30,089 nucleotides of DNA from a virus. Positions 4,590-29,107 of the stretch are shown here, in pieces. Each line of letters starts with the position of its first letter. Position 1 is the stretch's first letter. A program made the translations under genes and the position numbers. The stretch lies in IMG/VR virus record IMGVR_UViG_3300027996_000008. One strand, written 5' to 3'. A model generated the notes under the pieces. The model saw nothing but the letters and a program-made list of their open reading frames with translations, was not told the DNA's origin and ran no database searches.

Positions 4590-4607
4590 ATTTTTTTAAA
4601 AAATCTC

Positions 4608-4636
4608 TTGACATTTATTTTTAGATCGATTATAAT
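4608..4636 (+). promoter_or_regulatory. Sigma70-type (early) promoter
   Basis: TTGACA-17 bp-TATAAT, perfect consensus. Confidence 0.85.
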
Positions 4637-4675
4637 AGTAATTGTGAGTTGTTAATTTTTTGAAAGGAGATTGAA

Positions 4676-5125
4676 ATGAGTATTGGTATAAATCTTAATA
4701 AGTGTTTTGGAAATTGCAAGAAATGCTCTCACTTTTATATGAGTGATTATAGTTGTCTAGCAGAAGATGATAGTTGTTTTACTCAAATTAAAAGCAAAGA
4801 TGCTCTCAAAATAGTGAGAGCAAATAAAATAAGAAAAGACAAGTTGGAACATCTACACAAGATGTTCCCAGAATTAAAAGCTCAACTAGAGGAGGAGAAA
4901 TTGACAAAGAAAGAAATTGACAAACTCATGAAAGATCTTTCGGACAACGCACAAGATCCTTTATTAGAGAGTGACAAAGCCATTATCGAACTATATAAAG
5001 ATAATTGCAAATTGAAGGAAGGAATTACTGATTTGTTAGATTATCTTGAAATGGTTGGTCTAACTGGAAAAAGTTATTCAAAGGCTTTAAAATTATTAAA
5101 TGAATTAAATGGAGAAGACAAATGA
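4676..5125 (+). CDS. Hypothetical protein with a Cys-rich N-terminus, ending GEDK
   Basis: AAGGAG RBS; C..NCKKC...C...C pattern. Confidence 0.7.
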   Translation: MSIGINLNKCFGNCKKCSHFYMSDYSCLAEDDSCFTQIKSKDALKIVRANKIRKDKLEHLHKMFPELKAQLEEEKLTKKEIDKLMKDLSDNAQDPLLESDKAIIELYKDNCKLKEGITDLLDYLEMVGLTGKSYSKALKLLNELNGEDK

Positions 5126-6169: not shown

Positions 6170-6363
6170 ACTTTGACAAAACAGAACTTAAAAAAGTATT
6201 AATGGAAAGAGATGAACTAACATCTTTTGAAGCAGAAGAACTGATTCAGGATTGTCTTGATGATCTTGATGAAAGATTAGCACTTGGAGAATTGCCTGAA
6301 GATATTATGAGCGAATATTTTGGTCTAGAACCAGATTTTCTTTTTTCGTTTTTATTTTCTTAA
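6166..6363 (+). CDS. Small acidic hypothetical phage protein
   Basis: ATGA overlap; LMERD...EA.ELI...EDI..EYFGLEPD pattern. Confidence 0.7.
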   Translation: MNFDKTELKKVLMERDELTSFEAEELIQDCLDDLDERLALGELPEDIMSEYFGLEPDFLFSFLFS

Positions 6364-6654
6364 ACTTTCATTCTCTTTATTTTTAATTTTCAGATGCTTC
6401 TCAATGCACTTCATTCTTTCTTTCAACTGCTTAAACAATTTAATTGCTTTTTCATTGTTTCTAATTTGAATTTGCATGTTTTCTTCTTCAGATTTTTTAA
6501 TATCTAATAATTCATATTCAGGATTTTCAACTTTTGGACACATTATATCTGGAATTTTGTATTTTATTATAATTCTAGGTTTGCAAGTCTCACAACTAGT
6601 AATAATTAAGACTGAAAATACCAATAAAATCAATGCTTTCATAATTTCCTCCAC
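6352..6654 (-). CDS. Lipoprotein, putative o-spanin (Rz1-like)
   Basis: Signal MKALILLVFSVLIITS-C with lipobox-like Cys, Pro-containing segment (IPDIMCPKVENP), then coiled coil with Cys. Likely true start at MKAL (6642). Confidence 0.6.
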   Translation of the reverse strand: MEEIMKALILLVFSVLIITSCETCKPRIIIKYKIPDIMCPKVENPEYELLDIKKSEEENMQIQIRNNEKAIKLFKQLKERMKCIEKHLKIKNKENESLRK

Positions 6655-6671
6655 TTTTTTATAAAAATCTA

Positions 6672-6700
6672 TTGACTTTATTTATTTTATATGCGATAAT
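6672..6700 (+). promoter_or_regulatory. Sigma70-type promoter
   Basis: TTGACT-17 bp-GATAAT with an extended TG. Confidence 0.65.
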
Positions 6701-6759
6701 AGTAAATATAGAGTTGAGTTAGTTCAGCTCAGTTGTTAATTAATTTAAGGAGAATTATC

Positions 6760-7752: not shown

Positions 7753-7989
7753 ATGAGAAAATATATAAACTTAGATGTAGAAATATCTGTAGCTGATGTG
7801 CTTGATGAATTAACAGATGAAGAAAACATGCAACTTTATAAAGATCTGAAAGAATCTTATGTAGATAAAGAATTTAATTTTGAAACTATTGGAAATCTAT
7901 CAGAATCAGAACTATATCAGATAGCAAGTAATTTAAATAGTAATCAAGTAGAAAATTTGAAAAGAATAATAAAAATTCTTGACAAATAG
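7753..7989 (+). CDS. Hypothetical protein
   Basis: GGGAG RBS before the ATG at 7753. Confidence 0.65.
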   Translation: MRKYINLDVEISVADVLDELTDEENMQLYKDLKESYVDKEFNFETIGNLSESELYQIASNLNSNQVENLKRIIKILDK

Positions 7990-8006
7990 AAAAAAGTAAG
8001 TATAAT
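7979..8006 (+). promoter_or_regulatory. Sigma70-type promoter
   Basis: TTGACA-16 bp-TATAAT upstream of the AAA ATPase. Confidence 0.65.
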
Positions 8007-10697: not shown

Positions 10698-10886
10698 ATG
10701 AAATTAAATAAAATATTTGAACATAACAAAAAATATAAAATACATCTATCAAACAGTTTGTATTGGTCTGGAAGTGAACTATTTGTAAACTCTAGTTATC
10801 TTATATGGTTCCATTTACATGATTGGAATTTTTATTGTAGTGATCATTATTTTTGTAAGGAGATTGATAATGAGGAATACCAATGA
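10698..10886 (+). CDS. MKLNK-family cassette protein 1
   Basis: MKLNKIFE...LSNSL...NEEYQ. Confidence 0.75.
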   Translation: MKLNKIFEHNKKYKIHLSNSLYWSGSELFVNSSYLIWFHLHDWNFYCSDHYFCKEIDNEEYQ

Positions 10887-11068
10887 AATTAAATAAAATA
10901 TTTGAAAAGTCTGATAAAGTTATAAAATTTCTATCAAGTGGATTGTATAGTATTAAGTGTTATGATGATTTAAATATAAATTTTAAAATATTTATTTCGT
11001 TTACTGTATGTATTTTGAATTATGATTTTAGAGCTAATATTTATATAGACTATGAGGAATACAAATAA
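10883..11068 (+). CDS. MKLNK-family cassette protein 2
   Basis: MKLNKIFEKSDK..FLSSGL...DYEEYK. Confidence 0.75.
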   Translation: MKLNKIFEKSDKVIKFLSSGLYSIKCYDDLNINFKIFISFTVCILNYDFRANIYIDYEEYK

Positions 11069-11071
11069 AAC

Positions 11072-11099
11072 TTGACTTTATTTTAAAAGCAAGTATAAT
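11072..11099 (+). promoter_or_regulatory. Sigma70-type promoter
   Basis: TTGACT-16 bp-TATAAT upstream of the ligase. Confidence 0.65.
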
Positions 11100-11127
11100 T
11101 AGATTAGAATGTTAAAGGAGTTGATAA

Positions 11128-13029
11128 ATGGAAAAGATAAAACAACTAAAACAACTAATTAAAAAATGTAATGAAGCTTCAAAAGCTTATTACAATGAGC
11201 AAGAATTAATATCAAATAAAGAATTTGATTTTTTAATGAAAGAATTAAAAGAACTTGAAAAAGAAACTGGTGTGATATATTTAAATAGCCCAACACAAAC
11301 AGTTGGATATAGTGTATTGGATAAATTTGAAAAAAGAGAATTAATATACCCAATGCTTTCTCTAGATGATACTAAATCAACTGATGATATTAAAGAATTT
11401 ATTGGCGATAAAGATAACATTCTATCTGATAAACTAGATGGATGTTCCTGTGAAATTGTATATAAAAATAACATTCAATTTTCAGCAACAACACGCGGAA
11501 ATGGTCTAGTAGGGGAAGATATTAGTAACAATGCAAAGACATTCTTGAATTTACCAAAAAAAATCCCGTTTAAAGAACGATTTGTTCTACGATGTGAATT
11601 GGTTATATCATATAAAAATTTTGAAAATTTTAAGGATGATTTCAAAAACCCTAGAAATATGGTTGCTGGATCAATTCGACAACTAGACTCATCAGTTTGT
11701 GCAGAAAGATGTATTGAAGCAATTGTATTTGATCCAGTTGAAACACCTTTTGAAGAAGATAATAAATTGTTACAGTTTGTTCGATTATCCGATATTGGAT
11801 TTCAATGTGTAAAATGCTATGATTTAGAAGATTTACATGAAACATTGAATAATGTTGATGACAAATATCCAACTGATGGAAAAGTTGTTACATATAAGTC
11901 AATTTCTTATTCTAATTCTCTTGGTTCAACATCACACCACCCTAAACACAGTATTGCTTTCAAGTGGGCAGATGAAACACACACAACAACATTTATAGAT
12001 ATTGATTGGAGTGTCTCAAGAACCGGCAGAATAACACCAGTTGCAGTTTTTGAACCAACAGAAATTGAAGGATCAACTGTTTCACGAGCATCTTGTCATA
12101 ATGTTTCTGAACTAAAGAAATTAAATATGAAAGAAGGCGATCAAATCGAAATCTACAAAGCAAATAAAATAATTCCTCAAATAGACACTAATAACACTAA
12201 ACATGATGTAAATGTAACACTAATTCCAGAATATTGTCCAGTATGTGGTCATAAAACAGTGTTTAAAACAGAAAATGATGTTGAAACACTTCACTGTATT
12301 GAGCCTAATTGTAAAGCTAAAATAGTTGGTAAAATTAGTCATTTCTGTAATGTAATGGAAATGAAAGGAATTTCTGATAAAATCATTGAAAAAATAGTTG
12401 AAAATACATTTGTTGAAAATATAGATGAAATATTTGATCTAGATGGTAATGATTTAATTAACATAGATGGATTTAAAGAGAAAACTTGCAACAACATAAT
12501 ATCTACTATTAAGAATAATAAAACATGTTCTCTTGCTCAATTCCTTCGCTCTCTGGGCATAAAACACGTTGGAAAATCAGTTTCAGAATTGATAGCAAAA
12601 GAATACTATGATTATTATAGAACATTAAAAAACTTGAATTGGTTTGATATATCAGATATTTTGATAAAATTAATATCAGATAATAATATTGAGGGAATTG
12701 GTGATAAAATGTTTCAGGATATATCGAGGGAACTAACAGAAAGAGAGGATGAAATATATCGATTATTACATTATGTTGAAATTGAAGAACCAAAAGAAAC
12801 AACAGAATCAAATATATCAGGAAAATCTTTCTGTTGTACCGGTACACTTTCAAGAAAAAGAAAAGAAATAGAACAAGAAATAACAGATCTTGGTGGAGTT
12901 ATTAAATCTGTTTCTAAAAATCTTGATTTTCTTGTAATTGGTAATAATGCAGGAAGCAAAAAATCAAAAGCTGAAAAACTAGGAATTAAGATTATCACAG
13001 AAGATGAACTAATGGAGATGTTAAAATGA
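11128..13029 (+). CDS. ligA: NAD-dependent DNA ligase
   Basis: YY...D (domain Ia), PMLSL, KLDG adenylation motif, TRGNG..GED, NPRN, SRTGR.TPVA, CPVC zinc finger, HhH and C-terminal BRCT (GSKKSKAEKLGI). Confidence 0.95.
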   Translation: MEKIKQLKQLIKKCNEASKAYYNEQELISNKEFDFLMKELKELEKETGVIYLNSPTQTVGYSVLDKFEKRELIYPMLSLDDTKSTDDIKEFIGDKDNILSDKLDGCSCEIVYKNNIQFSATTRGNGLVGEDISNNAKTFLNLPKKIPFKERFVLRCELVISYKNFENFKDDFKNPRNMVAGSIRQLDSSVCAERCIEAIVFDPVETPFEEDNKLLQFVRLSDIGFQCVKCYDLEDLHETLNNVDDKYPTDGKVVTYKSISYSNSLGSTSHHPKHSIAFKWADETHTTTFIDIDWSVSRTGRITPVAVFEPTEIEGSTVSRASCHNVSELKKLNMKEGDQIEIYKANKIIPQIDTNNTKHDVNVTLIPEYCPVCGHKTVFKTENDVETLHCIEPNCKAKIVGKISHFCNVMEMKGISDKIIEKIVENTFVENIDEIFDLDGNDLINIDGFKEKTCNNIISTIKNNKTCSLAQFLRSLGIKHVGKSVSELIAKEYYDYYRTLKNLNWFDISDILIKLISDNNIEGIGDKMFQDISRELTEREDEIYRLLHYVEIEEPKETTESNISGKSFCCTGTLSRKRKEIEQEITDLGGVIKSVSKNLDFLVIGNNAGSKKSKAEKLGIKIITEDELMEMLK

Positions 13030-13460
13030 ATGGACACGCTTATTATTTTAAATTTCATTGGGATCGATATTATGATATGTTTAAACATTATTTTGCTCAT
13101 AGTTTCATTGAATCAATTGAAACAGCTGCTTTAAACATTTCTTTTGATGAAAAATATAAAGGCAAAAACAAAGGAACTTATTTAAATGAATTATATAGAG
13201 ATTTAGAATATGCAAAAAAATTGAAAGAAGAATCTAAAAAAATAAAATCAACATCTTTAAATAGACTTTATGAAAAAGAAAAACGATACAGTTTTGATTT
13301 AAAAATTAATATTGAAAAAAAATTTATTGTTAGTCTTATTGAAAAAACTATGTTCATTGAAAAAGTTGAAAAATATAAATTAGATCGTCAAAAAATGAAG
13401 CCTGAAAAGAAAAAGAACAGCTATGAAAGAAAGAACAAATATAATAAGAGAAGAAAATGA
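13026..13460 (+). CDS. Hypothetical basic protein
   Basis: ATGA overlap with ligA; GGAG RBS. Confidence 0.65.
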   Translation: MNGHAYYFKFHWDRYYDMFKHYFAHSFIESIETAALNISFDEKYKGKNKGTYLNELYRDLEYAKKLKEESKKIKSTSLNRLYEKEKRYSFDLKINIEKKFIVSLIEKTMFIEKVEKYKLDRQKMKPEKKKNSYERKNKYNKRRK

Positions 13461-13666
13461 AACTGAATAAAAGATTTGAAAAGTCAGAAAAAGATAAAAA
13501 ATATCTATCAAATGGATTACTTGTTGATTGTGAAAATTATATATATCTAAATACTGATTATTATTATATTATTTTGTTTTATTTTGATTATTTTAGATTT
13601 TATTATTGTGATAATTACAATAACTTAGAATTTTCAATTACTTCAAATTACGAGAAATATCAATGA
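13457..13666 (+). CDS. MKLNK-family cassette protein 3
   Basis: MKLNKRFE...YLSNGL...NYEKYQ. Confidence 0.75.
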   Translation: MKLNKRFEKSEKDKKYLSNGLLVDCENYIYLNTDYYYIILFYFDYFRFYYCDNYNNLEFSITSNYEKYQ

Positions 13667-13890
13667 AATTAAATAAAAGATTTGAAAAAGAAAAAGATAA
13701 ATTTGATGATATTAATAGATATCTATCAAGTGGTGTTTGTCTTAATTGGCAAAATGATATATATCTAGATACTGATTATGATTATGCTATTTGGTTTTGG
13801 TCAAATTATTTTAAATTTGATTTTAGTAATATGTTTGAAATTGAAACTGAAGATTATACACAATACAGGGAAGAAAATGAAATTAAATAA
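13663..13890 (+). CDS. MKLNK-family cassette protein 4
   Basis: MKLNKRFE...YLSSGV...EDYTQY. Confidence 0.75.
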   Translation: MKLNKRFEKEKDKFDDINRYLSSGVCLNWQNDIYLDTDYDYAIWFWSNYFKFDFSNMFEIETEDYTQYREENEIK

Positions 13891-14098
13891 AATGATTGAA
13901 AAGTCAAATGAATGTAAAAAATTTATATCAAATGGTTTGTGTGTTAGTGGAAATTTTTTTAATTCAACTAATATACATTCACGTTATAATTGGTTTAGAC
14001 ATGAATTATTAATGTGGTTAGATGTAGTTGTTTTGTATTGTAAAGGTGAAAGTTTTAAAGGTTATAAAAGCTATTATTTAAACCCAGAAGAATATTAA
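13877..14098 (+). CDS. MKLNK-family cassette protein 5
   Basis: Internal in-frame start within ORF 13778..14098: MKLNKMIE...ISNGL...PEEY. Confidence 0.75.
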   Translation: MKLNKMIEKSNECKKFISNGLCVSGNFFNSTNIHSRYNWFRHELLMWLDVVVLYCKGESFKGYKSYYLNPEEY

Positions 14099-14111
14099 AA
14101 AGGAGAAAAAT

Positions 14112-14327
14112 ATGAGTTTTAAAAAAGAGCAAGAAAAAGAAGTATTATCAAGAAGTTTTAAATGTAATGATATTATACATGGTGATAATTATATAATAGT
14201 AACCGATTGGACTAATGGCGAAGGATATGATATAGAAATTGAACCAGGAAAGGGATATACACAAAAACTATCTCTAACAAGAGAACAAATCAAAGATTTA
14301 ATTGGTATAATGGCAGATATATTATAA
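14112..14327 (+). CDS. Small hypothetical phage protein
   Basis: AAGGAG RBS; YI.VTDWTNGEGYDI motif. Confidence 0.7.
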   Translation: MSFKKEQEKEVLSRSFKCNDIIHGDNYIIVTDWTNGEGYDIEIEPGKGYTQKLSLTREQIKDLIGIMADIL

Positions 14328-14375
14328 TTTTATACATATTAGTGTTAATATTAACTTACAAAAAGGAGATTTAAA

Positions 14376-14717
14376 ATGAAAGTAAAAATGTTAAACGATC
14401 AAATTTTGATCAAAAAAATTATTGAAGATTATTCAATGTCTAAAGGAGGGATTGTGTTAAGTAAAAATCCAGAAGCACCAAGAACATGCAAAGCAGAAGT
14501 TTTTGCAGTTGGTCCTGGTAAAAAATCTTTAAATGGTGATCTTATGAAAACGATTGTTGAAGAAGGCGATATTGTTCGGATCAATTCAAAAATTGGAACA
14601 GAAATCATCGATGAAGATGGTGTTAAACTTTATGTTATCACAGAACCACAAATTTTCTTTGTTTATGATGATGATAAAGAATGTAAATGTGATAATTGCA
14701 AAGGAGATTGCAAATGA
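14376..14717 (+). CDS. groES: Co-chaperonin GroES (Cpn10) homologue
   Basis: LND.ILIK...SKGGIVL...A.V.AVGPG...VEEGD.V...GTEI pattern. Confidence 0.9.
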   Translation: MKVKMLNDQILIKKIIEDYSMSKGGIVLSKNPEAPRTCKAEVFAVGPGKKSLNGDLMKTIVEEGDIVRINSKIGTEIIDEDGVKLYVITEPQIFFVYDDDKECKCDNCKGDCK

Positions 14718-15283
14718 TGTTTCCTGAAAAGAAAGATCTTAAATTTATCAACCTCAAAAATCAATCAATTGTTTTCAATAATATTATATCATTTGAATTT
14801 AATCGTGAAAATAATACAATTGAAATTATAACATATGATAAGTATTGTTACACACAACATGAAATTCCTATTCCTATCAAACACATATCTAATCAACTAG
14901 CTCAAATATTCTTAAATGATATTTTTGAAAACACATATACTGATTTTATTGAAACAAGCATTTATGAATTATTCTGCAGAAAATATCTAATCTATCTAAC
15001 TATTGAACTTTGTCAAACGTACGGAAATGCTCATAGATCAAACACATTCACATATATTGACAATTGTTTAGATAGTCTAAAAACTGATTGTTCTAATATT
15101 TTTAGTTCAATTGATTTTTATAAAAAAGATAGTGAATGGTTTTTTTATGGGAAATATGTAGAAGAAAATCAAATAAAATTTTATGAAAATGAATACAACA
15201 ACAAAGAAGATTTTGAAAAGTTGTTTTATGATTGGAAAATTCTATTTGATGAGTGTTTGAATTTTGATGTTATATATGAATAA
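14714..15283 (+). CDS. Hypothetical protein
   Basis: AAGGAG RBS and ATGA overlap with the groES stop. Confidence 0.65.
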   Translation: MMFPEKKDLKFINLKNQSIVFNNIISFEFNRENNTIEIITYDKYCYTQHEIPIPIKHISNQLAQIFLNDIFENTYTDFIETSIYELFCRKYLIYLTIELCQTYGNAHRSNTFTYIDNCLDSLKTDCSNIFSSIDFYKKDSEWFFYGKYVEENQIKFYENEYNNKEDFEKLFYDWKILFDECLNFDVIYE

Positions 15284-15350
15284 AAAGTTTTTACCTATGC
15301 ATAGACATTAGAAAACTGTTTTTGTTTCACTATCAAAGAATATGAAACTC

Positions 15351-15602
15351 TCAGAACACATTTGGAAATGGATTCTCAACATACTTTTCACAAGATTCTT
15401 CAGTATAATAATTTTCAACAATTTTGCTAGCTTTTTCTTGTAACAAATCATAATCCAAAAATGCACCATTCACATTTTTAAAATCCATTTGATAAACCTT
15501 TTGATTTTCATCATATTCAAATAATAATTCAACCAGTGCATGACCAACATAGGTTATAACTTTCCATTCATGTTCAATCAATTGTTCTGTGCATTCATTC
15601 AT
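15351..15602 (-). CDS. Acidic hypothetical protein
   Basis: GGAG RBS before the ATG at 15602; AATAAATA late-like box on the minus strand at 15630-15637. Confidence 0.6.
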   Translation of the reverse strand: MNECTEQLIEHEWKVITYVGHALVELLFEYDENQKVYQMDFKNVNGAFLDYDLLQEKASKIVENYYTEESCEKYVENPFPNVF

Positions 15603-15648
15603 TTCAATCTCCATCAGATAGTTCTATTTTATTTATTTTACAAATTTC

Positions 15649-15677
15649 TTGACTTTTATGTAAAAATGTACTATAAT
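15649..15677 (+). promoter_or_regulatory. Sigma70-type promoter heading the largest MKLNK cluster
   Basis: TTGACT-17 bp-TATAAT. Confidence 0.8.
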
Positions 15678-15717
15678 TGTTTTGTTGATTGTTAATTTAA
15701 ATAATTTGGAGTTATTA

Positions 15718-15924
15718 ATGAAACTGAATAGAATATTTGAAAAAAACACAGCTGAACATCAAGCTGGTGCAAAAATTCTATCAAATGAATTATTAATTTA
15801 TTCTGGTGATATATATTTGCATAATTTTGATAAATATGTTATTTACTTTGGACCAGTACATTTTAGGATTAATTTTCTTTCTTTTGATACTTTCATTGAT
15901 TTACATTTTGAGGACTACAGATGA
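15718..15924 (+). CDS. MKLNK-family cassette protein 6
   Basis: GGAG RBS; MKLNRIFE...LSNEL...FEDYR. Confidence 0.75.
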   Translation: MKLNRIFEKNTAEHQAGAKILSNELLIYSGDIYLHNFDKYVIYFGPVHFRINFLSFDTFIDLHFEDYR

Positions 15925-16139
15925 AACTGAATAAAATTATTGAAAAATCGAACGTTATTGAATGTGAATATTGCAATTTATTGTATTGTAATATTATTAA
16001 TGAAAAAATAATATCATTATTTTTGTTGTCTGATGAATTTATTCATATTGAATCACATCAATTAACATTTTGTTATAATGTAAATGAATTTGGTAATTCT
16101 GATAATTTCATTGATTTTGAATATGAGGACTACAGATGA
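15921..16139 (+). CDS. MKLNK-family cassette protein 7
   Basis: MKLNKIIE...EYEDYR. Confidence 0.75.
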   Translation: MKLNKIIEKSNVIECEYCNLLYCNIINEKIISLFLLSDEFIHIESHQLTFCYNVNEFGNSDNFIDFEYEDYR

Positions 16140-16348
16140 AGTTAAATAAAATTATTGAAAAGAAAGAAATTGATTATTATAATATTAAAATTTATATAGT
16201 AGATAAAAATGAAAAAACATTATTAAAAAAGCATGGAATAGAGTTTTTTGCAATTGGATATACATATCATATAATGTTTTATTATGATACAGATTATGAA
16301 GGTTATTGTCAAAAAGTTAAAAAAATTGAATATGAGGATTACAGATGA
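16136..16348 (+). CDS. MKLNK-family cassette protein 8
   Basis: MKLNKIIE...EYEDYR. Confidence 0.75.
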   Translation: MKLNKIIEKKEIDYYNIKIYIVDKNEKTLLKKHGIEFFAIGYTYHIMFYYDTDYEGYCQKVKKIEYEDYR

Positions 16349-16791
16349 AGGTTATTAAAATAATTACAATTGCAATATTATTAATTTCAGGAAATTGTTA
16401 TGCAGATAGAACACAAGATATTATTAACAAAATAGAAACATTTTTTAATAACACAGAATATAAAAATGTTACTAAAATAATAATAGCTCAGTCTATTCTA
16501 GAAACTGGTTGGTATAAATCGCCTAGACACAATGAATATAACAATTATTGGAGTGTTAAGGATATTAGAAAATGGAAAACATGTCATAAAAAACCAATCA
16601 CGTGTATGATTGATAATAAAAATCTTGACGAAAATATAAAAATGATGTATAATTATATCAAGAGAAAAAAATATAGCATTGAATATGATGGATATTTTGT
16701 TGATCTTATTAAAAAGAAGTTTGCTGAAGATCCTAAATATGTTTGGAAATTGAAAAGAATTATAAAAACAATGAATAGGTTGTACAGATGA
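16345..16791 (+). CDS. Secreted GH73/FlgJ-like peptidoglycan glucosaminidase
   Basis: Signal peptide; IIAQSILETGW.KS, NNYWSVK and FAEDPKY (YATDP-like) motifs. Confidence 0.75.
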   Translation: MKVIKIITIAILLISGNCYADRTQDIINKIETFFNNTEYKNVTKIIIAQSILETGWYKSPRHNEYNNYWSVKDIRKWKTCHKKPITCMIDNKNLDENIKMMYNYIKRKKYSIEYDGYFVDLIKKKFAEDPKYVWKLKRIIKTMNRLYR

Positions 16792-16994
16792 AGTTAAATA
16801 AAAGATTTGAATTGAACAAACAATATCTATCAAGTGGAATATGGGTTAATGAATTTAGCAAATATAGAATATTTTTTTTAAATTCAATTGATCAATATTC
16901 ACATTATATTAGATTTAAAAACAATGGGTTTATCTATGTAATTAATTCTTATATTTATGAAAATAGAATTAATATAGAATATGAGGAATATTAA
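16788..16994 (+). CDS. MKLNK-family cassette protein 9
   Basis: MKLNKRFELNKQYLSSG...EYEEY. Confidence 0.75.
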   Translation: MKLNKRFELNKQYLSSGIWVNEFSKYRIFFLNSIDQYSHYIRFKNNGFIYVINSYIYENRINIEYEEY

Positions 16995-17197
16995 TGAAGT
17001 TAAATAAAATATTTGAAAAGTCTGATAAAGTTATGAAATTTCTATCAAGTGGATTATACATTAGTTCTTATAATGTAATATTTAATGTAATATTTTTAAA
17101 TAAGAATTTTTATCTTTCTCATTTATTTTTTGTTGATGGGTTTAAATTATCACATTATATTTTAAATTGGCATTTCTTTGAAGATGAATACAAATAA
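16994..17197 (+). CDS. MKLNK-family cassette protein 10
   Basis: MKLNKIFEKSDK..FLSSGL...EDEYK. Confidence 0.75.
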   Translation: MKLNKIFEKSDKVMKFLSSGLYISSYNVIFNVIFLNKNFYLSHLFFVDGFKLSHYILNWHFFEDEYK

Positions 17198-17209
17198 AAG
17201 GAGAACACA

Positions 17210-17782
17210 ATGAAAAAATTAATTTATGTAATCTTTTGGTTAAGAATGATTTTGTGGTTCAAACCACATAGAAAATTTGAATTGTGGTTGAATAGAAAAA
17301 CAGATTTTTCAAAATTGATTGAAAAAATGCAAAAATCAAAAATACGGAACAGTTCACCAGTCACAAACTGGAACAATTTGATGGTTGAATTTCCAAAAAT
17401 GAAATGGAAACAAGATGGATTTTGGAAAGGATTTGATACAATATCTGATTATAGAGTTGTGTTGAAAAGTGATGGTGATGATTGTGATGGATATATTTCT
17501 GTTGCGTTAGAATATTTTGGTAATAAAATATATTACAATAATTCAGTATATGTAAACAATGGATACACGACATGTTTGTATAGAACATTGTTCAATGGGC
17601 ATGTGATAGGAATTTGGGAAAGCATGAGAGATGATTCTGTGTTTGTTGTGTCTAATAGAAGAAGTAGATTATTCAACAACAAAGATGAAATGTGGGAATG
17701 GTTTGAAAAAGGATTTGAGCAACCATCATATATAGTTAAACAAACAAAAGATTTAGATGTTTTAGGAGTTATGGATTTATGA
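17210..17782 (+). CDS. Putative transglutaminase-like/papain-fold protein
   Basis: GDDCDGY motif with a downstream GHV; AAGGAG RBS. Confidence 0.45.
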   Translation: MKKLIYVIFWLRMILWFKPHRKFELWLNRKTDFSKLIEKMQKSKIRNSSPVTNWNNLMVEFPKMKWKQDGFWKGFDTISDYRVVLKSDGDDCDGYISVALEYFGNKIYYNNSVYVNNGYTTCLYRTLFNGHVIGIWESMRDDSVFVVSNRRSRLFNNKDEMWEWFEKGFEQPSYIVKQTKDLDVLGVMDL

Positions 17783-18000
17783 TGAAACTGAACAAACGAT
17801 TTGAATATGGAAAAAATAATGGTTATGTAAAAGAAACATATCTGTTAAATGGTTGTTGGGTCAATTCAAATGGATTATCTTTTTGTTTAAATTATAATAC
17901 TATATTTAGTGATTATATTTATTTTCCATTTGGTGAAAATGGATGTTACTTTATATTATTTAAAAGTGATATACAAATTAACTATGAGGACTATCAATGA
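17782..18000 (+). CDS. MKLNK-family cassette protein 11
   Basis: MKLNKRFE...YLLNG...NYEDYQ (alternative start at 17779). Confidence 0.75.
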   Translation: MKLNKRFEYGKNNGYVKETYLLNGCWVNSNGLSFCLNYNTIFSDYIYFPFGENGCYFILFKSDIQINYEDYQ

Positions 18001-18209
18001 AGTTAAATAAAATATTTGAATTGAACAAACAATATCTATCAAGTGGATTGTGTGTTAAAATTAGTAATTATAATGATTGGAATATATGTATACATTTAGT
18101 TAAAAAAGAATTTTTGAATTATATATTATTTTTTGAAGATTATATTAATTATATAGAAGATTATTATAGTAGTAATTGGTTTAGATATGATTATGAGGAA
18201 TATCAATGA
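17997..18209 (+). CDS. MKLNK-family cassette protein 12
   Basis: MKLNKIFELNKQYLSSGL...DYEEYQ. Confidence 0.75.
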   Translation: MKLNKIFELNKQYLSSGLCVKISNYNDWNICIHLVKKEFLNYILFFEDYINYIEDYYSSNWFRYDYEEYQ

Positions 18210-18394
18210 AATTGAACAAACGATTTGAACACAAAGATTGGAAACTAGCTGGTGATGAATTACAATTTGAAGAATACGATAACAGTTATTATTATAATAT
18301 AATTTATGACAAAACAGAAAAGAAATCATTTTACATATGTTTTTTCAATGAATGTTATATTAAATATTTTGGTGAAATGTATGAAGTTAAATAA
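18206..18394 (+). CDS. MKLNK-family cassette protein 13 (divergent body)
   Basis: MKLNKRFE start, but no LSxG motif and no canonical tail. Confidence 0.7.
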   Translation: MKLNKRFEHKDWKLAGDELQFEEYDNSYYYNIIYDKTEKKSFYICFFNECYIKYFGEMYEVK

Positions 18395-18596
18395 AATATT
18401 TGAAAAGTCTGATAAAGATATGAAATATCTATCAAGTGGATTGTTTGTTGATAATAGTTATATATATACAAGAATAAAATCATTTTCTAAAATGTTTATA
18501 AATTTTTATAATCTGGATTGTATGTTGATAATTGATTTTAGTTTTTATAAACATACTAATAATATTAATAATATAGAATATGAGGAATACAGATGA
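18381..18596 (+). CDS. MKLNK-family cassette protein 14
   Basis: Internal start within ORF 18306..18596: MKLNKIFEKSDK..YLSSGL...EYEEYR. Confidence 0.75.
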   Translation: MKLNKIFEKSDKDMKYLSSGLFVDNSYIYTRIKSFSKMFINFYNLDCMLIIDFSFYKHTNNINNIEYEEYR

Positions 18597-18799
18597 AATT
18601 AAATAAAATATTTGAATTGAACAAGAAATTTCTATCAAATGGATTGTGGGTTTATGAAATTAGAAAAAATAGAATATTTTTTTTAAATTCATCTGTACAA
18701 CATTTACATTATATTGAATTTTTTCCTTATGATTTTAAATATGTAATCAATTCTGATATTTATGAAAAACTTATTCATATAGACTATGAGGAATATTAA
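18593..18799 (+). CDS. MKLNK-family cassette protein 15
   Basis: MKLNKIFELNKKFLSNGL...DYEEY; close paralogue of cassette 9. Confidence 0.75.
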   Translation: MKLNKIFELNKKFLSNGLWVYEIRKNRIFFLNSSVQHLHYIEFFPYDFKYVINSDIYEKLIHIDYEEY

Positions 18800-19182
18800 T
18801 CTAATTTCATTTGTTGATATTGCTGATTTAGCAAATCATAAAGTTTTTGCAACAACTCCAAACTTCCAGGATCTTGAAAATATTTTTCAACAATCTTATG
18901 ATTTTCAATCACTTTGTTATTATAGTTGTTTTCAATGATCACAAATTCATCCTGTGATTCACTTAAAATTTCTTGTGATTGTTTTAAAAAGTAAATCTCT
19001 TCTTCCTTATGATCAATGATTGTTTCTAATTGAAACAACTCCTCTTGTTGTAATTTGATCTTTGCTTCTTTTTGATCAATTTGATAGTTCTGATATTTGA
19101 AATATCCAAAGATTGCAATGATGATCAAACCAAATGCAAATTCTTTCCAATAGTTTTTTAAAAGTGATGTTATAATAACCAT
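18796..19182 (-). CDS. Putative i-spanin (Rz-like)
   Basis: Single N-terminal TM helix then a long coiled coil; directly downstream of the endolysin. Confidence 0.65.
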   Translation of the reverse strand: MVIITSLLKNYWKEFAFGLIIIAIFGYFKYQNYQIDQKEAKIKLQQEELFQLETIIDHKEEEIYFLKQSQEILSESQDEFVIIENNYNNKVIENHKIVEKYFQDPGSLELLQKLYDLLNQQYQQMKLD

Positions 19183-19202
19183 TCGTTTCCTCCTATTTGT
19201 TT

Positions 19203-19655
19203 CTATTTAAAATCTGGATGTTCAAGACACATCCCTTTCCTCATCATCTTTTTAATCAATTCAACATCAAAATTTGGGCATGTCTTGTTTGAAAATTCAT
19301 TATGTGCATGAATTTTGCTAATTGGAATAGAATAATCATCTGTTAGTTGTAATAAAAGTGCAATAAGAGAGTCTAGCTGCTTGATAGTGAATTGATTGAG
19401 ACCGATTAGACAGATACCTATATGATCATTTTTTCCAATGCAATGTGCTCCTAATTTGTTTAATGATCTACCTTTTTGAATCTTTCCATCAAAATCAGGA
19501 TCAAAGTTTGTTTTAGTAATAAATCCATTACAAATGACAAACGAATATCCGCATTCAGACCAACCATTACCATTTATGTGCCATTCATCAATTAGTTCTT
19601 TTGTTCCAAAACTACTATCACTACAATGTAATACAATTCCTTTCCATTTAATCAT
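19203..19655 (-). CDS. N-acetylmuramoyl-L-alanine amidase endolysin (Amidase_2, T7-lysozyme-like)
   Basis: IVLHCS, WH...GW...GY, GR....GAH..G.N, IGICL.G and H......K.CP zinc ligands. Confidence 0.9.
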   Translation of the reverse strand: MIKWKGIVLHCSDSSFGTKELIDEWHINGNGWSECGYSFVICNGFITKTNFDPDFDGKIQKGRSLNKLGAHCIGKNDHIGICLIGLNQFTIKQLDSLIALLLQLTDDYSIPISKIHAHNEFSNKTCPNFDVELIKKMMRKGMCLEHPDFK

Positions 19656-20515
19656 TCAACACTCCATTTATTATATCTATTAATGTAAATAAGTTCTTTA
19701 ATATATTCGTTATATAAATTATTTATTTTAATTCTACAATGATAGCAGAAATAATTATGACTTGCTTTGGCTTTATATTTCCAACCACACCATTTACATG
19801 TAACAGAAACTTTACATTTGTTTAAATTATAGATGTCAGAAACATCATTTTTTATTTCAATTATTTTTTCAGAACATTCCTCACAATAATTATACACTTT
19901 ATGTGATCCATAAAAAATATTTTCACACCATTTACAACATCTTTTTAATGGTTTTCTTTGCTTGTTTATTCTTTTTCTATTAATTCTTCTTTTATTATTT
20001 CTCTCTTCTGATTTAATTTTATTATTTTCACTTTTACATAAATCACTACAAAACTTAGCATTTCCACTATTTCCAATAAAATTATTTTCACATATTACAC
20101 ATATTTTATTCCATTTTTGTTTCTTAGTATAATGTGATAATTTTTTTCTTGTTTCTTCACTAACAACATGACCCATTTTTGATTCTGAAATTTTTTTCTT
20201 ATGTTCTTCAGAAAAAATACTCATATCTGCCATACACATATTATATCCTTCTTTCAAAGTATTGTATTTTTCAATGAAATAATTCTCTCTTTCAATCAAA
20301 ACATCTGTGTTACAATTTTCTAATATCCAAAATTGAAATTTATCTTCATTATATTTATTCCAAGATCTTTGTAAATGATTATTATAATGTTTGTTATTTT
20401 TTAAAAATCTTAAATGTTCTTTAAATCTTCTATCTAAATGTTTACTTGAACCTATATATGATTTATTATTTGCTGTATTTAAAATCATATAGATTCCAGA
20501 ATTAAAGTTTGCCAT
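19652..20515 (-). mobile_element. Free-standing GIY-YIG homing endonuclease
   Basis: SGIY..N..N.KSYIGSS, R...H, E, GYN; NUMOD3-like SEEHKKKISES/SEETRKKLS; several CxxC pairs at the C-terminus. Confidence 0.9.
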
Positions 20516-20580
20516 CTTTCTCTCCCGACAATAATTATTAAATCACTGTCAGTCTCGGCCGAGAGAAAGACAGCATAATT

Positions 20581-20751
20581 TTATTTATCTTTTTTATTTT
20601 CTAGAAATTTATCTGTTATATTTGCTGATACATACAAGAAACATAGAGACAACCATATTTCTGGAGTTATCAACTTGATTGGTAGAAAAATAGTTCCAAT
20701 TAAAAATACATGAAATTTTCTAGAAAGTAGAATTCTTTTGATCTTTTTCAT
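20581..20751 (-). CDS. Putative holin (56 aa, not in the ORF track)
   Basis: Hand translation MKKIKRILLSRKFHVFLIGTIFLPIKLITPEIWLSLCFLYVSANITDKFLENKKDK; GGAGG RBS; two hydrophobic segments with charged termini; heads the lysis operon. Confidence 0.6.
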   Translation of the reverse strand: MKKIKRILLSRKFHVFLIGTIFLPIKLITPEIWLSLCFLYVSANITDKFLENKKDK

Positions 20752-20777
20752 TTAAACCTCCAATAGTTAAATAATTC

Positions 20778-20806
20778 TTGACTTTATTTATTTTTCAATG
20801 TATAAT
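20778..20806 (+). promoter_or_regulatory. Sigma70-type promoter
   Basis: TTGACT-17 bp-TATAAT. Confidence 0.8.
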
Positions 20807-20844
20807 AGTATTGTGAGTTGTTAATTTTAATTGTGGAGTTTGAA

Positions 20845-21069
20845 ATGAATAAATTAGAAGAAAAAATACAAGAATTAAAAGACAGACTCATTGAAATTCA
20901 TGAGTCAGATATGGTTTTTCAAAAATCTCTAGATGTAATGAAAGATCTAGAAAAAGATATTGTAGAACTTTCATTGATTGTTGATGAATTGAAAAAAGAA
21001 ACTGCTACATCTGGCGGTTGTCCAAGATGTGGTGAAAAATTGACTATAAAGGGATATTTTTTGTTATGA
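20845..21069 (+). CDS. Coiled-coil hypothetical protein with a CPRC motif
   Basis: GGAG RBS before the ATG at 20845. Confidence 0.65.
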   Translation: MNKLEEKIQELKDRLIEIHESDMVFQKSLDVMKDLEKDIVELSLIVDELKKETATSGGCPRCGEKLTIKGYFLL

Positions 21070-21311
21070 AATTAAACAAAAGATTTGAAAATTCAAGAGA
21101 TAAAAAATATGAAAGATATGAAAAATTATATTTAACAAGTAGTTTAATTGCTACTGGAGTTTCTTATAAATTTTATCTTGCAATTTCTTATAGAATTTCT
21201 ATAATATTTGATTCAACAATAGAATCAAATCTAAAAATAACACATGCAAATACAGATTTTAACTGGACAAATGCTAAAGACGTATATATTAATTTTGAGG
21301 ATTATAAATGA
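21066..21311 (+). CDS. MKLNK-family cassette protein 16
   Basis: MKLNKRFE...YLTSSL...NFEDYK. Confidence 0.75.
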   Translation: MKLNKRFENSRDKKYERYEKLYLTSSLIATGVSYKFYLAISYRISIIFDSTIESNLKITHANTDFNWTNAKDVYINFEDYK

Positions 21312-21550
21312 AGCTGAATAAATGTTATGAAAAATATGCTAATTGCACACAAGTATCATAAGGACATATGTTTTCTTTTAGCAAATCTCAAGGATATAAT
21401 CTAAAATTTTTATCTAATGGATTGTGGTTGAATGAAAATTGTTTGAATTTTGACTTGTTTGAAGTTTACATACATTTTATAGATAATTGTTTTTATTGTG
21501 TAGTTAATAATCGTGAAAGAATTTTATCTAAATATGAGGATTATCAATAA
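21308..21550 (+). pseudogene. MKLNK-family cassette 17, interrupted by an in-frame TAA
   Basis: MKLNKCYEKYANCTQVS*(21359-21361)GH-MFSF...FLSNGL...KYEDYQ, all in one frame. Confidence 0.7.
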
Positions 21551-21586
21551 AACAAAAAAAGAGTTATTATGTGTGAGGAATATTAG

Positions 21587-21808
21587 ATGAAACTGAACAA
21601 GCGGTTTGAAAAAAATATATCTAGATACAAATATAATGAATATCTAGATTATTCAACTGATGAATGTGAAAATACATTTTACAATCTTTTTGAAAAAAAT
21701 ACATCTAAAATTCAGAATTCTAATTATTTAAGATTATATTTAAATTTATTTATTATTTGGTCTTATATTCCAATAAAATCATTGAAAAGAACATGGATGA
21801 ATATTTAA
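21587..21808 (+). CDS. MKLNK-family cassette protein 18
   Basis: MKLNKRFE start with GAGGA RBS; a DYQ* tail (GATTATCAATAA) follows the stop codon. Confidence 0.65.
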   Translation: MKLNKRFEKNISRYKYNEYLDYSTDECENTFYNLFEKNTSKIQNSNYLRLYLNLFIIWSYIPIKSLKRTWMNI

Positions 21809-21823
21809 GATTATCAATAAAAC

Positions 21824-21865
21824 AAAAAAAGAGCGGGATAAAAGAGGAGGTAGCTCTCATCCCGC
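21824..21865 (-). terminator. Rho-independent terminator for the minus-strand late genes
   Basis: GCGGGAT...ATCCCGC stem with inner AGAG/CTCT pairing, followed on the minus strand by a T7 tract; lies between convergent genes. Confidence 0.65.
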
Positions 21866-23442: not shown

Positions 23443-24090
23443 TTAAGTTTTAGTATATTCTGTCTCAGAACCTGTCGAATCCTTTTCGTAGTGTATGTCT
23501 ACTTCAAGCAGATAAATGTCTTCTGTAAAATTGTCTGCAACACTGACATCTCTTGTCAAGCTACATAATATCATTGTACTGACATCATCTATTGCAGAAC
23601 CATCAATTGTTCCCAGAGGAACCAATCCATGGAGATCTGATGCACGTGATTGCACGTCCGCAGTAATGGATAAATTTAATTCTGCGCCGAATGCTTCATT
23701 CAAATTAGCCGCACAGTAAGTCATGTCGAATTTTATATTCTGTACACCTGATGCTGACCCAGCAACAGGCATAACCATGTGCATGTGAGGTCTCAGGTCG
23801 CTACCAAATTTATAATCGTGTGGAAGTTGCACAACAAAAGTGATTCCCTGATCTGCACCATCTTCAAATTTCAGAACAACAGTGCTCTTGTAGATCTGAT
23901 CTTTTGCCTCCTTTCCTGGGATTTTTTTTGATAGTGATGGTGGGAATCGCAGATCATCCCAAGTTGTAACCGTTCCATTATATCTGAGTCCCTGTATCTT
24001 ATTTAATTCTGCACTGTTCACCACATCACCACTTTTTATACCATCAGGTGTGTTGAGTGGATTTCTTAATGCGTCGCCTATAAAAGTCAT
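23443..24090 (-). CDS. Putative virion/fibre-associated beta-sandwich protein
   Basis: WDDLRFP...VQLPHDYK.GSD..PH.H...D.HYE.D..GS; shares the MTFIGDAL N-terminus with its neighbour. Confidence 0.55.
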   Translation of the reverse strand: MTFIGDALRNPLNTPDGIKSGDVVNSAELNKIQGLRYNGTVTTWDDLRFPPSLSKKIPGKEAKDQIYKSTVVLKFEDGADQGITFVVQLPHDYKFGSDLRPHMHMVMPVAGSASGVQNIKFDMTYCAANLNEAFGAELNLSITADVQSRASDLHGLVPLGTIDGSAIDDVSTMILCSLTRDVSVADNFTEDIYLLEVDIHYEKDSTGSETEYTKT

Positions 24091-24099
24091 TTTTTTCTC

Positions 24100-24612
24100 C
24101 TAGTCAAAAAATTCTGAAATTGATGTGTTAAAATGAAGAAAATTCATTTTTCCTCCATCATCATTTGATTCTGTCACGAGTTGTATTTCATCGTATTGTG
24201 CCAACTCTACAACAACCGTTCCTGAAAGTGCATATGGTTCATTAATATTTTTTGCAAATGTACCCATCACAGAACCGTCAAGTAAAACACCATTTTTCAT
24301 AATTGCACAATGAAATGTAACACCTCCTGAATCCGCCGAAACTGACGCATGCCAGTCTATTTCGTAATATTGTGTTAAAGCACAAGTACATTTAATTCCA
24401 GGTGTGTATGTTGTAGCCGCTTCAAAACATTCAATTGGAGCATTCACAAACGTTCCTAAAATTGGAGTATATACGCCTGTTGCTCCAGTGGTTGTTTCTT
24501 CTGGTGCAGAAAGATATGCAAATATCCCCACCTTTTGTGCAGTGACATTGCCTGTTGCATTCACATCACTCACATTCGCACTATTTTTTAGTGCATCGCC
24601 TATAAAAGTCAT
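24100..24612 (-). CDS. Putative virion protein, C1q/TNF-like jelly-roll
   Basis: YYEI...SV...I.KNG...SGT.VVELAQYD.IQL pattern. Confidence 0.5.
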   Translation of the reverse strand: MTFIGDALKNSANVSDVNATGNVTAQKVGIFAYLSAPEETTTGATGVYTPILGTFVNAPIECFEAATTYTPGIKCTCALTQYYEIDWHASVSADSGGVTFHCAIMKNGVLLDGSVMGTFAKNINEPYALSGTVVVELAQYDEIQLVTESNDDGGKMNFLHFNTSISEFFD

Positions 24613-25940: not shown

Positions 25941-26354
25941 TTATCTAGAAGATTTTACAACTAAATCTACCATATGAATAACTAATGTATCTGTTCCAGT
26001 TGCAACATCAGGAATAATTGTAATTTTAACTTTATCATTAGCTTTTCCAACAGGATATATAATTCTATAATTTCCAGCATCAGCAGCAGTAAAAATAGCA
26101 AGTGATATTGTTAACAAACTAGGATCTAAAATTGTTTCTTTGTAAAAATCATCAGCGGTTAAATTTTTGTTTGAATAGCTCATTTGAATGGTAAAATCAG
26201 CAGATGCATTTTTTGTATATTTATAAAAAAATTCAACATATTCAGCTTGAAAAGTTTTCACATCATAAATTATATCCCACTGTGATCCATCAGCGTTTGT
26301 GTCTGTTATTGATTCAAAAGTATCAGTAACTGATTCTGTAACTGTAAAAGTCAT
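25941..26354 (-). CDS. Putative virion protein
   Basis: Thr/Asp-rich, beta-type composition; first gene after a late promoter. Confidence 0.55.
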   Translation of the reverse strand: MTFTVTESVTDTFESITDTNADGSQWDIIYDVKTFQAEYVEFFYKYTKNASADFTIQMSYSNKNLTADDFYKETILDPSLLTISLAIFTAADAGNYRIIYPVGKANDKVKITIIPDVATGTDTLVIHMVDLVVKSSR

Positions 26355-27852: not shown

Positions 27853-28155
27853 TTATCTCCTTCCATTATTAATTCTTTTAATTTCACGATATTTTATTTT
27901 AAGGGCATTTTTTAAATCATTAAGTGCACGTTCACCTGTCAAGAATGCTAGTTTATTTGACATTAGACTTTCCAAATATGTCATTAACTGACAATAGTCA
28001 ACATCTTCATCAACATCTTCATCAATATCTTCATATTTATCTAACAAATGATCTTCGACTTTTTCAACCAAATTCAATTTATCAGGGCCTCTATCATTCC
28101 CATTGCTATCGGATATTATTTTATTAATACATTTTAAACAATGACACATCTTCAT
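27853..28155 (-). CDS. Hypothetical protein
   Basis: AGGAG RBS, ATGA overlap, N-terminal CHC..C. Confidence 0.65.
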   Translation of the reverse strand: MKMCHCLKCINKIISDSNGNDRGPDKLNLVEKVEDHLLDKYEDIDEDVDEDVDYCQLMTYLESLMSNKLAFLTGERALNDLKNALKIKYREIKRINNGRR

Positions 28156-29021
28156 AACGTTTCTCCTATTAATAACAGCGATCTTAATAGTATTTCATTT
28201 ATAAGTCGCTGTTCAGCATCAGCAGCAATAGCGGCAGCATCAGCACGAGCAGCAGCATAAGCACGAGCAGCATCAGCAGCAAGAGCGGCAGCATCAGCAC
28301 GAGCAGCATCAGCAGCAGCATCAGCAGCAGCATAAGCAGCATCAGCAGCAGCATAAGCAGCATAAGCAGCATAAGCAACATCAGCACGAGCAGCATCAGC
28401 AGCAAGAGCGGCAGCATCAGCACGAGCAGCATCAGCAGCAGCATCAGCAGCAGCATAAGCAGCATAAGCAGCATAAGCAGCATAAGCACGAGCAGCAAGA
28501 GCAGCAGCATCAGCAGCATAAGCATAAGCAGCATCAGCATCAGCATCAGCATCAGCAGCAGCATAAGCATAAGCATAAGCAGCATAAGCAACATCAGCAC
28601 GAGCAGCATCAGCAGCAAGAGCGGCAGCATCAGCAGCATCAGCAGCAGCATCAGCATCAGTCTTCAATTCTTCTTTGGTGATTTTTCCTTCTTTATAATC
28701 TCTTATTGCTTGAATAGATTCCCTGGGTCTGTTGTCTTCAGGGAATCTCTCCTCAAAAATATAAAGGACATATTCTGCGATATCTGCGAGGATTAAGCAA
28801 TAATCTTCGTATTTCTGAGTTCTCAATGCCCAGAAGGCATTGTCACATCCATTAATATTCAAGATCTCTAAAATTGATACTTCTGTATTAAGCTGTTCAT
28901 CGGACAAACGTATTTTTTTATCTTCATTGATTATTTCTAAATCAAAGACGGAAGTACATAATTTGTTCCATCCATCAACACAGGGGCGATGCCTTAATAT
29001 TTCTTTAAATGTCGTCTTCAT
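28152..29021 (-). CDS. Ala-rich repeat protein with an Imm5-like helical domain
   Basis: AD.AE.VL..FE..FPEDNRPR..I.A..DY..G.I..EEL followed by about 150 aa of A/D/Y/R repeats; AGGAG RBS before the ATG at 29021. Confidence 0.7.
   Translation of the reverse strand: MKTTFKEILRHRPCVDGWNKLCTSVFDLEIINEDKKIRLSDEQLNTEVSILEILNINGCDNAFWALRTQKYEDYCLILADIAEYVLYIFEERFPEDNRPRESIQAIRDYKEGKITKEELKTDADAAADAADAAALAADAARADVAYAAYAYAYAAADADADADAAYAYAADAAALAARAYAAYAAYAAYAAADAAADAARADAAALAADAARADVAYAAYAAYAAADAAYAAADAAADAARADAAALAADAARAYAAARADAAAIAADAEQRLINEILLRSLLLIGETL
28213..28660 (-). repeat. Low-complexity trinucleotide-based tandem repeat (GCT/GAT/TAT/CGT codons)
   Basis: Runs of GCAGCATCA and GCATAA on +; DAAALAADAARA occurs three times. 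Confidence 0.95.
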
Positions 29022-29107
29022 TGTTATTCTCCTATTAACCAATCTATAAAAATTTGCATTATTTAAATTAACAACTGAGATTGATCATTCTCAATCCCTA
29101 TACTTTA

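Follow-up and report, generated by a model that had tools for sequence, protein, structure and literature searches.

How does a phage come to hold 18 small genes that agree at both ends and diverge in between, and what might such a set be for? The question is raised by a 30,089-nt stretch of viral DNA, IMG/VR record IMGVR_UViG_3300027996_000008, to which we refer here as the window. Its family units, each opening with MKLN(K/R)xxE and measuring 186 to 246 nt, are spread over 11 kb. With a probability that we put at about one half, they form an early-made cytoplasmic repertoire of host-binding proteins that is shuffled by ordinary homologous recombination.

A preliminary description of this DNA had placed 18 such genes, and all 18 were recovered at precisely those starts (by which we name the units), all on the + strand and none on the − strand. 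Order-3 Markov simulations gave 0.01 such starts expected per window and a maximum of 1 in 200 simulations. The four clusters proposed earlier turned out to be six runs (10698-11068, 13457-14098, 15718-16348, 16788-17197, 17782-18799 and 21066-21808), since two unrelated genes split the third. Sixteen of the 18 units are intact; 21308 and 21587 are broken, and about half of the contig depth in metagenome run X3 shows a sense codon at the stop of 21308. Each unit is built on three anchors, an 8-codon head, an LS(S/N)G box and an acidic-Tyr tail, between which lie a variable linker of 5 to 14 residues and a variable body of 27 to 49 residues. These anchors are less uniform than first described: a recognizable box is present in 14/18 units, but the form [LI]S[SN]G in 10/18 and strict LS(S/N)GL in only 7/18, and the ending (Y/F)E(E/D)Y holds for 11/18. 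The claimed coupled junction, with GAGGA 6 nt ahead of an overlapping start, is found at 8 of the 12 unit-to-unit junctions; the other four deviate (one with GAGAA, two with a 14-nt overlap, and one with a 36-nt gap and its own GAGGA remnant). GAGGA is indeed kept by the units ending at 11068, 18799 and 21550, described as cluster-terminal, but the last of these is not terminal. Two further run-terminal units (ends 14098 and 17197) have lost the GAG codon and retained acidic-acidic-Tyr.

The ends are conserved as more than DNA handles, contrary to what the preliminary description would imply. At head codons 2 to 5 and 8, the proportion of nonsynonymous differences (pN) is 0.009 versus 0.86 for synonymous ones (pS), and the Leu3 codon alternates between TTA, CTG and TTG; the head is therefore under selection at the protein level. 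Among the strain differences listed, codons 1 to 9 of the units carry four silent changes and one replacement, and the codons beyond carry none and nine, respectively (Fisher p 0.005, on small numbers); this count leaves out six changes on unit 18593 in run X5, which come from one contig at depth 2.1 and possibly represent a mis-laid paralogue. Non-family genes show eight replacement and five silent codon changes among the differences listed. In the tail, glutamate is encoded by GAG, a codon whose background use is 12%, and this GAG is selected as a Shine-Dalgarno element; a GGAG/GAGG-type site is also used by other genes of the window. GAG is favored, and EEY or DEY persists where GAG is lost (in two run-terminal units followed by genes with ribosome-binding sites of their own); the tail is thus conserved as peptide and as DNA alike. 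Beyond codon 21, all 18 units are free of stops, whereas a shuffled stretch stays open 1.4% of the time, which argues that the genes are under selection as proteins. The comparison of substitution rates between ends and middles suggested earlier could be made in part: against the head values stands a single alignable body pair, with a pN/pS of ∼1.1.

Are the middles then related to each other, and is the family known? The earlier remark that the family is not a recognized one was borne out by library searches: no unit of 18 matched Pfam and none of 27 family members matched PADLOC, PHROGs gave a weak match for 1/18 (E 0.003, function unknown), NCBIfam gave two single-member weak hits among 27 members, and a PDB sequence search gave no hit at E ≤ 1. 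A HMMER profile search of 1.84 billion proteins, which answers the earlier call for a copy-number scan, returned 27 hits, all resembling this phage or close strains; the family is confined to one lineage. Eighteen are window units or their alleles, five more lie on the same 128,709-nt contig, onto which the window proteins map and which holds 23 confirmed copies, and four are absent from it and occur only on other contigs. Junction and head DNA patterns gave 0, 0 and 1 matches in viral contigs, the one being a cyanopodovirus-like contig without a family open reading frame (ORF); their 17 matches in metagenome contigs and 39 in genome contigs were single unrelated starts or off-frame, with no array at the metagenome loci. 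A description of the family was absent from the searched literature; supplements, which could list similar families, and most subscription papers lay outside that search. Judged by their sequences, the 18 units belong to one paralogous family of small genes that appears undescribed.

The middles had been likened to the spacers of a repeat-spacer array, and this does not hold. When each body was compared with a leave-one-out profile of the remaining ones (n = 27, cut p ≤ 0.05), 12 matched where ∼1.4 would be expected, and 7 of 153 pairwise comparisons passed p ≤ 0.01; by this measure the middles read as distant homologues rather than unrelated spacers. The bodies have a GC content of 14 to 28%, are enriched in Phe, Tyr and Asn, and the predicted isoelectric point (pI) ranges from 4.4 to 9.4 across the family. 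Structure prediction had been suggested as a test for one shared fold, and two AlphaFold models agree with each other: both have a short N-terminal helix followed by a six-stranded beta-meander, with a predicted local distance difference test score (pLDDT) of 70 and 74 and a predicted template modeling score (pTM) of 0.49 and 0.47. Foldseek gave no match at E ≤ 0.001, the best structural-neighbor Z scores were 4.4 and 5.5, to generic meanders only, and in the ESM Atlas feature hits of ≤0.82 were at chance level, with no usable structure hit.

The relation between heads and bodies points to exchange within the genes. Heads are 94 to 95% identical among units 10883, 16994 and 18381 and between 16788 and 17997, and the bodies of these same units are 53 to 60% identical, against a shuffled baseline of 52 ± 5%. 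Identity collapses at nt 51, 62, 62 and 64, which is 0 to 4 nt past the end of the box, in the four pairs kept from a max-chi test (14 of 153 pairs passed the cut, and 10 were discarded as end-gap artifacts). In the triplet 16788/17997/18593, informative sites divide 5:0:3 in the head and 7:64:13 in the body, unit 16788 grouping with 17997 by its head and with 18593 by its body. Drift at the head third-position rate was rejected for three of the four pairs (p ≤ 0.003; p 0.05 for the fourth), and linker and body similarity were uncorrelated among 13 units tested (Mantel r 0.10, p 0.22). Formally, the divergence of the bodies could also stem from very strong positive selection, but body pN/pS is ∼1.1 in the one alignable pair. 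These patterns support an additional point of exchange within the gene, directly behind the LS(S/N)G box. The earlier idea of an array recombining at its junctions thus stands as regards recombination, but the clearest breakpoints lie inside the ORF. In addition, the LSNGLLV patch of unit 13457 recurs in P0033, an allele of the neighboring unit 13663.

Turnover at the junctions would fit three further features: the tail remnant at 21569-21586; the 25 nt directly 3′ of unit 21587 (21809-21833), which repeat the tail and flank at 21539-21563; and the glucosaminidase gene bracketed by the junction word TACAGATGAAG, whose chance occurrence is ∼0.002 per site. Since no folded site was found and no recombinase was present among the scanned window genes, general homologous recombination without a dedicated enzyme would suffice; T4-type recombination is said to need <50 bp (accessible text of PMC2839356). 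Separately, units 13457 and 13877 resemble each other in the head and have GAAGAAA in common as their upstream flank (13450-13520 and 13870-13940), which suggests duplication along with the flank, and allele P0034 of unit 13663 is without the tail extension that results from the flank of 13877. Cassette-wide hypermutation was also considered and is disfavored: among the differences listed, 7 of the 17 in X3 fall in cassette DNA (20% of the cover, p 0.04), but a single unit accounts for all seven, and none is found in three further units of the same contig.

Of seven seawater metagenome runs that contain some of the stretch, five contain at least half of it and two may be its source; no contig in the metagenome runs spans the whole of it. 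The contigs of X3 and X4, neither of which was flagged as a possible source of the DNA, reproduce the region with at most a few differences and are interrupted at the head repeats; the repeats are therefore present in the reads. Differences in array size are suggested by three members that share a longest contig of 955 nt and the same two sources, namely P0003 (an allele of 10698), P0037 (an allele of 10883) and P0025 (absent from the 128,709-nt contig). P0037 ends in YEEYQ, the coupled type of tail, where the terminal copy of the window ends in YEEYK, and P0025 ends in YEEYK, the terminal type. Contig extent, source and tail type together suggest a strain with a three-unit array where the window has two, and a crossover between the two tails would turn the former into the latter.

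Every run lies downstream of a sigma-70 site matching the consensus at 11 to 12 of 12 positions, and near-consensus promoters occur only at operon starts or within genes, not between units. The box TATAAATA, which we take to be the T4 late promoter box, stands upstream of structural-looking genes at 3527(+), 22878(−) and 26401(−), and the phage is therefore likely T4-like; no such box was found ahead of any run. The early expression of the units that the preliminary description proposed would be expected from this placement of the array behind host-type promoters. As an observation in its own right, a family of sigma-70-type promoters with a common downstream GTTGTTAAT-like leader (1644-1735, 4591-4682, 6655-6705, 15632-15682 and 20768-20851) belongs to the repeat families D10, D16, D18 and D19 and could be an exchange point like those of the PeSL cassettes discussed below.

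We propose that the constant ends, which overlap as ribosome-binding site, stop and next start, are likely handles by which copies are added, dropped and re-mixed. A crossover in tail plus head would gain or lose whole units with coupling intact; an exchange ending at the box would give one head several unrelated-looking bodies, which is the pattern observed. Neither step would call for a dedicated recombinase or a structured site. The conserved ends may act as a scaffold or common docking motif, and the predicted flat, aromatic sheet as a variable surface aimed at host proteins such as defense systems, targets suggested by T4 Ip1-3, each of which blocks one GmrSD variant (accessible text of PMC12373910 and PMC9391042). 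If the bodies are host-binding surfaces, the array would be a compact, enzyme-free route to a diversified anti-host repertoire, and the family, from a single uncultured lineage, provides no fewer than 27 natural variants of a small, undescribed scaffold for screening against defense systems. A bolder extension would be a combinatorial diversification system contained entirely in coding sequence, in which the three anchors allow linkers and bodies to be exchanged independently and units to be gained or lost with their coupling. Variable host defenses would then face an antigenic-variation-like library of small beta-sheet binders, which the phage might package and inject; this is improbable enough that we offer it as speculation.

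Several points weigh against the proposed host-binding repertoire. Promoter-like sites are not enriched overall (141 vs 133 ± 13), 15 of the 27 bodies score no better than shuffles, the pTM of the AlphaFold models is below 0.5, and single-sequence Atlas models are poor (pLDDT 0.38 to 0.41). The body pN/pS of the one alignable pair (0.226/0.205) fits drift as well as diversifying selection, and GC content at third codon positions is lower in the bodies than in other genes (75/776 vs 572/3147). Two of the 18 copies are broken. The gain and loss of cassettes predicted earlier did not appear in the contigs of X1-X6, where no unit-skipping joint with long flanks was found, although contigs drop rare variants. 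Finally, the 128,709-nt contig may be incomplete, and the members absent from it may sit elsewhere in the same genome.

The same shuffling could serve a different delivery: the head may direct the proteins to the capsid and be removed by the prohead protease through cleavage behind Glu8, the proteins being packaged and injected like T4 internal proteins. We regard this as doubtful, though the most serious of the rival explanations. A leader of the targeting type, ∼10 residues long and ending in Glu, is matched by the 8-residue head, two residues shorter than that of T4; M1, K2, L3, N4 and E8 are invariant in 26/26 members (P0026 left out), conservation drops past E8, and M1, K2 and F7 agree with the T4 leader of IPII and IPIII. 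Model residues 1 to 10 have a low pLDDT (53 to 55), and all three T4 ip genes likewise lie behind early promoters. Specific inhibitors of GmrSD are among the products of the polymorphic T4 ip loci (accessible text of PMC12373910 and PMC2839356). In T4, residues 4 and 7 direct targeting (accessible text of PMC9026906) and are aromatic; here position 7 is F, I or Y (19, 5 and 2 of 26), but position 4 is Asn in all. The gp21-type cleavage motif L/I-x-E occupies positions 6 to 8 in just 9/18 window units and 14/26 members, although the phage's own protease motif may differ, and position 6 is Arg in 7/18, through three different Arg codons. The head was found in 0/45 other window genes, and no longer proteins scored with the family profile (weak evidence). 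T4 internal proteins are homologous only in the leader (accessible text of PMC12373910), whereas here box and tail are common and 12 of the 27 bodies match the profile of the others. The family's wide pI range contrasts with 8.9 to 9.5 for the T4 proteins, and profile comparison gave no match to IPI (hhalign probability 0.1%; IPII and IPIII were compared by eye, N-terminus only).

Nearly neutral birth and death, in which a self-coupling mini-gene copies itself through its own repeats, AT-biased mutation lets its bodies drift and the frames are held open only by some weak generic function, would account for the body pN/pS, the AT-rich bodies with their Phe, Tyr and Asn, the restriction to one lineage, and the two broken copies and tail remnant, all in the last run. 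It is unlikely: 16/18 genes, including terminal copies without a coupling partner, have stayed intact although divergence is saturated and lengths vary, head residues are held against synonymous change, and acidic-acidic-Tyr persists where the Shine-Dalgarno codon is lost. A dedicated site-specific system, integron-like or like a diversity-generating retroelement, moving or mutating cassettes at a DNA site such as the LS(S/N)G box, is very unlikely. Breakpoints do cluster right after the box, which retains rare codons (CTA in 10/13 Leu, TCA in 11/12 Ser) while toggling between Ser and Asn, but such retention is as expected from homogenization, and equally from gene conversion. Fourteen aligned copies of junction plus box gave no consensus structure and no predicted pairs, Rfam gave no match for either, and no integrase or reverse transcriptase was found among 37 scanned non-family window proteins. 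To an assembly artifact as the origin of array or mosaicism we give almost no weight: no contig spans the stretch and contigs break at the head repeats, but four metagenome runs yield near-identical contigs over the units, and alleles from other assemblies preserve the head-body pairs.

Table 1. Coordinates of the family units and associated features in the window
Position	Strand	Feature	Length	Remarks
7979..8006	+	Sigma-70 consensus promoter (12/12)		Heads AAA ATPase/vWA operon ending in run 1; consensus match only
10698..10886	+	Family unit	62 aa	Opens run 1, behind vWA-like gene
10883..11068	+	Family unit	61 aa	KSDK-type head; tail YEEYK of terminal type; ligase promoter immediately 3′
11072..11099	+	Sigma-70-type promoter		Heads ligase operon containing run 2; consensus match only
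13457..13666	+	Family unit	69 aa	Opens run 2
13663..13890	+	Family unit	75 aa	Extended tail, overlaps next unit by 14 nt; canonical YR end in allele P0034
13877..14098	+	Family unit	73 aa	Run-terminal; EEY kept without GAG codon
15649..15677	+	Sigma-70-type promoter (TTGACT-17-TATAAT)		Ahead of run 3; consensus match only
15718..15924	+	Family unit	68 aa	Three more alleles on record
15921..16139	+	Family unit	72 aa	Without clear box
16136..16348	+	Family unit	70 aa	Without clear box; tail coupled to glucosaminidase gene
16345..16791	+	Glucosaminidase gene (non-family)		TACAGATGAAG at both ends (16340, 16783); likely junction insertion
16788..16994	+	Family unit	68 aa	Mosaic: head nearest 17997, body nearest 18593
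16994..17197	+	Family unit	67 aa	KSDK-type head; run-terminal; DEY kept without GAG
17210..17782	+	Non-family gene	190 aa	Interrupts array; no family match
17782..18000	+	Family unit	72 aa	Opens run 5
17997..18209	+	Family unit	70 aa	LNKQY head
18206..18394	+	Family unit	62 aa	Without clear box; altered tail; overlaps next unit by 14 nt
18381..18596	+	Family unit	71 aa	KSDK-type head
18593..18799	+	Family unit	68 aa	Terminal; GAGGA kept; meets convergent spanin gene
20778..20806	+	Sigma-70-type promoter		Ahead of run 6, one non-family gene between; consensus match only
21066..21311	+	Family unit	81 aa	Opens run 6
21308..21550	+	Family unit, broken		In-frame TAA (21359-21361); box-like motif repeated; possible restart at 21368
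21569..21586	+	Isolated tail remnant (GAGGAATATTAG)		Provides ribosome-binding site of last unit
21587..21808	+	Family unit	73 aa	Stop replaces expected tail glutamate
21833..21865	+	Strong hairpin (−16.5 kcal/mol, z −4.6)		Between array and convergent late operon; likely terminator

The window has a GC content of 27.7%. Library scans identified tail-tube, small terminase, Rz-like spanin, amidase, GIY-YIG nuclease, NAD-dependent ligase and GroES genes (the last at 14376-14717, +), and an AAA ATPase/vWA pair is also encoded. A spanin implies a diderm host. The interrupting gene at 17210-17782 has a DGDDCDG motif and may be protease-like. Close relatives of the phage are scarce: no related loci were found via the tail tube and the AAA ATPase, neither the tail tube nor one family unit searched matched any isolate phage, the best match of the ligase was only 40%, and the small terminase had a single relative (72%) on a 920-nt contig. 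No tRNA or Rfam family was found in the searched window DNA.

Elsewhere in the window, a structured-looking leader (20516-20580, −) precedes the GIY-YIG gene (19652-20515), its CTTTCTCTC being complementary to the gene's own ribosome-binding region GAGAGAAAG. Two adjacent late genes, 23443-24090 (−) and 24100-24612 (−), share the first eight residues MTFIGDAL, and gene 25941-26354 (−) begins MTFT, possibly a common assembly or anchoring motif. An Imm5-like protein (28152-29042, −; Pfam E 1e-7) contains a long GC-rich Ala/Asp/Tyr 9-nt repeat tract despite the AT-rich genome. A lipoprotein-like gene (6352-6654, −), distant from the block of spanin, amidase and small membrane genes (18796-20751, −), may be the outer spanin, and 90-329 (+) encodes a solo HicB-like antitoxin.

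How, then, does the array compare with known systems? Single-layer beta-meander scaffolds (the CPAP TCP10 domain, MORN repeats and gp5/VgrG spike strands) are the best neighbors of the models (Z 5.5, root mean square deviation 2.7 over 60 residues), but a Z below 8 indicates a common arrangement only, from which neither homology nor function follows. The LSm-like fold family of T4 early proteins (GoF, MotB.1 and Frd.2) likewise consists of diverged early phage proteins with a common small beta fold; unlike here, it comprises three dispersed genes with a different predicted fold, and constant coupled ends are not mentioned in the accessible text (PMC12152347). The folded attC site typical of integrons has no counterpart in the 14 junction copies.

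The T-even ip loci (IPI, IPII and IPIII) also hold small early-promoter genes with a short conserved N-terminus ending in Glu and many variants, and the plasticity of these loci is attributed to flanking repeats (accessible text of PMC2839356 and PMC12373910), as repeats are likewise implicated here. Unlike those genes, the present ones are homologous paralogues with three conserved motifs, and their repeats, instead of being promoter elements, lie in translationally coupled coding sequence. In PeSL cassettes (RB49/phi1, PST and nt-1), short repeats between small ORFans serve gain and loss, and mini-circles have been shown (accessible text of PMC2839356 and PMC4122927). There, too, short repeats between small genes are the recombination points. 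PeSLs, however, are intergenic promoter-terminator elements flanking unrelated genes, whereas here the handles lie in coding ends without promoter or hairpin: the units overlap or abut, no consensus structure is present, and a second handle lies inside the gene. Gain and loss of the PeSL type would follow here from alleles and tail types, none having been seen in the X1-X6 contigs. The array thus works like T-even ip loci and PeSL cassettes, as far as the accessible texts describe them (PMC2839356, PMC3012670, PMC9026906 and PMC4122927), yet departs from the defining traits of both. T4-type phages are known to shuffle accessory genes via short intergenic repeats; new here is that the repeats are the coding ends of one paralogous family, doubling as ribosome-binding site, stop and start, and that a probable second exchange point within the gene re-pairs heads and bodies.

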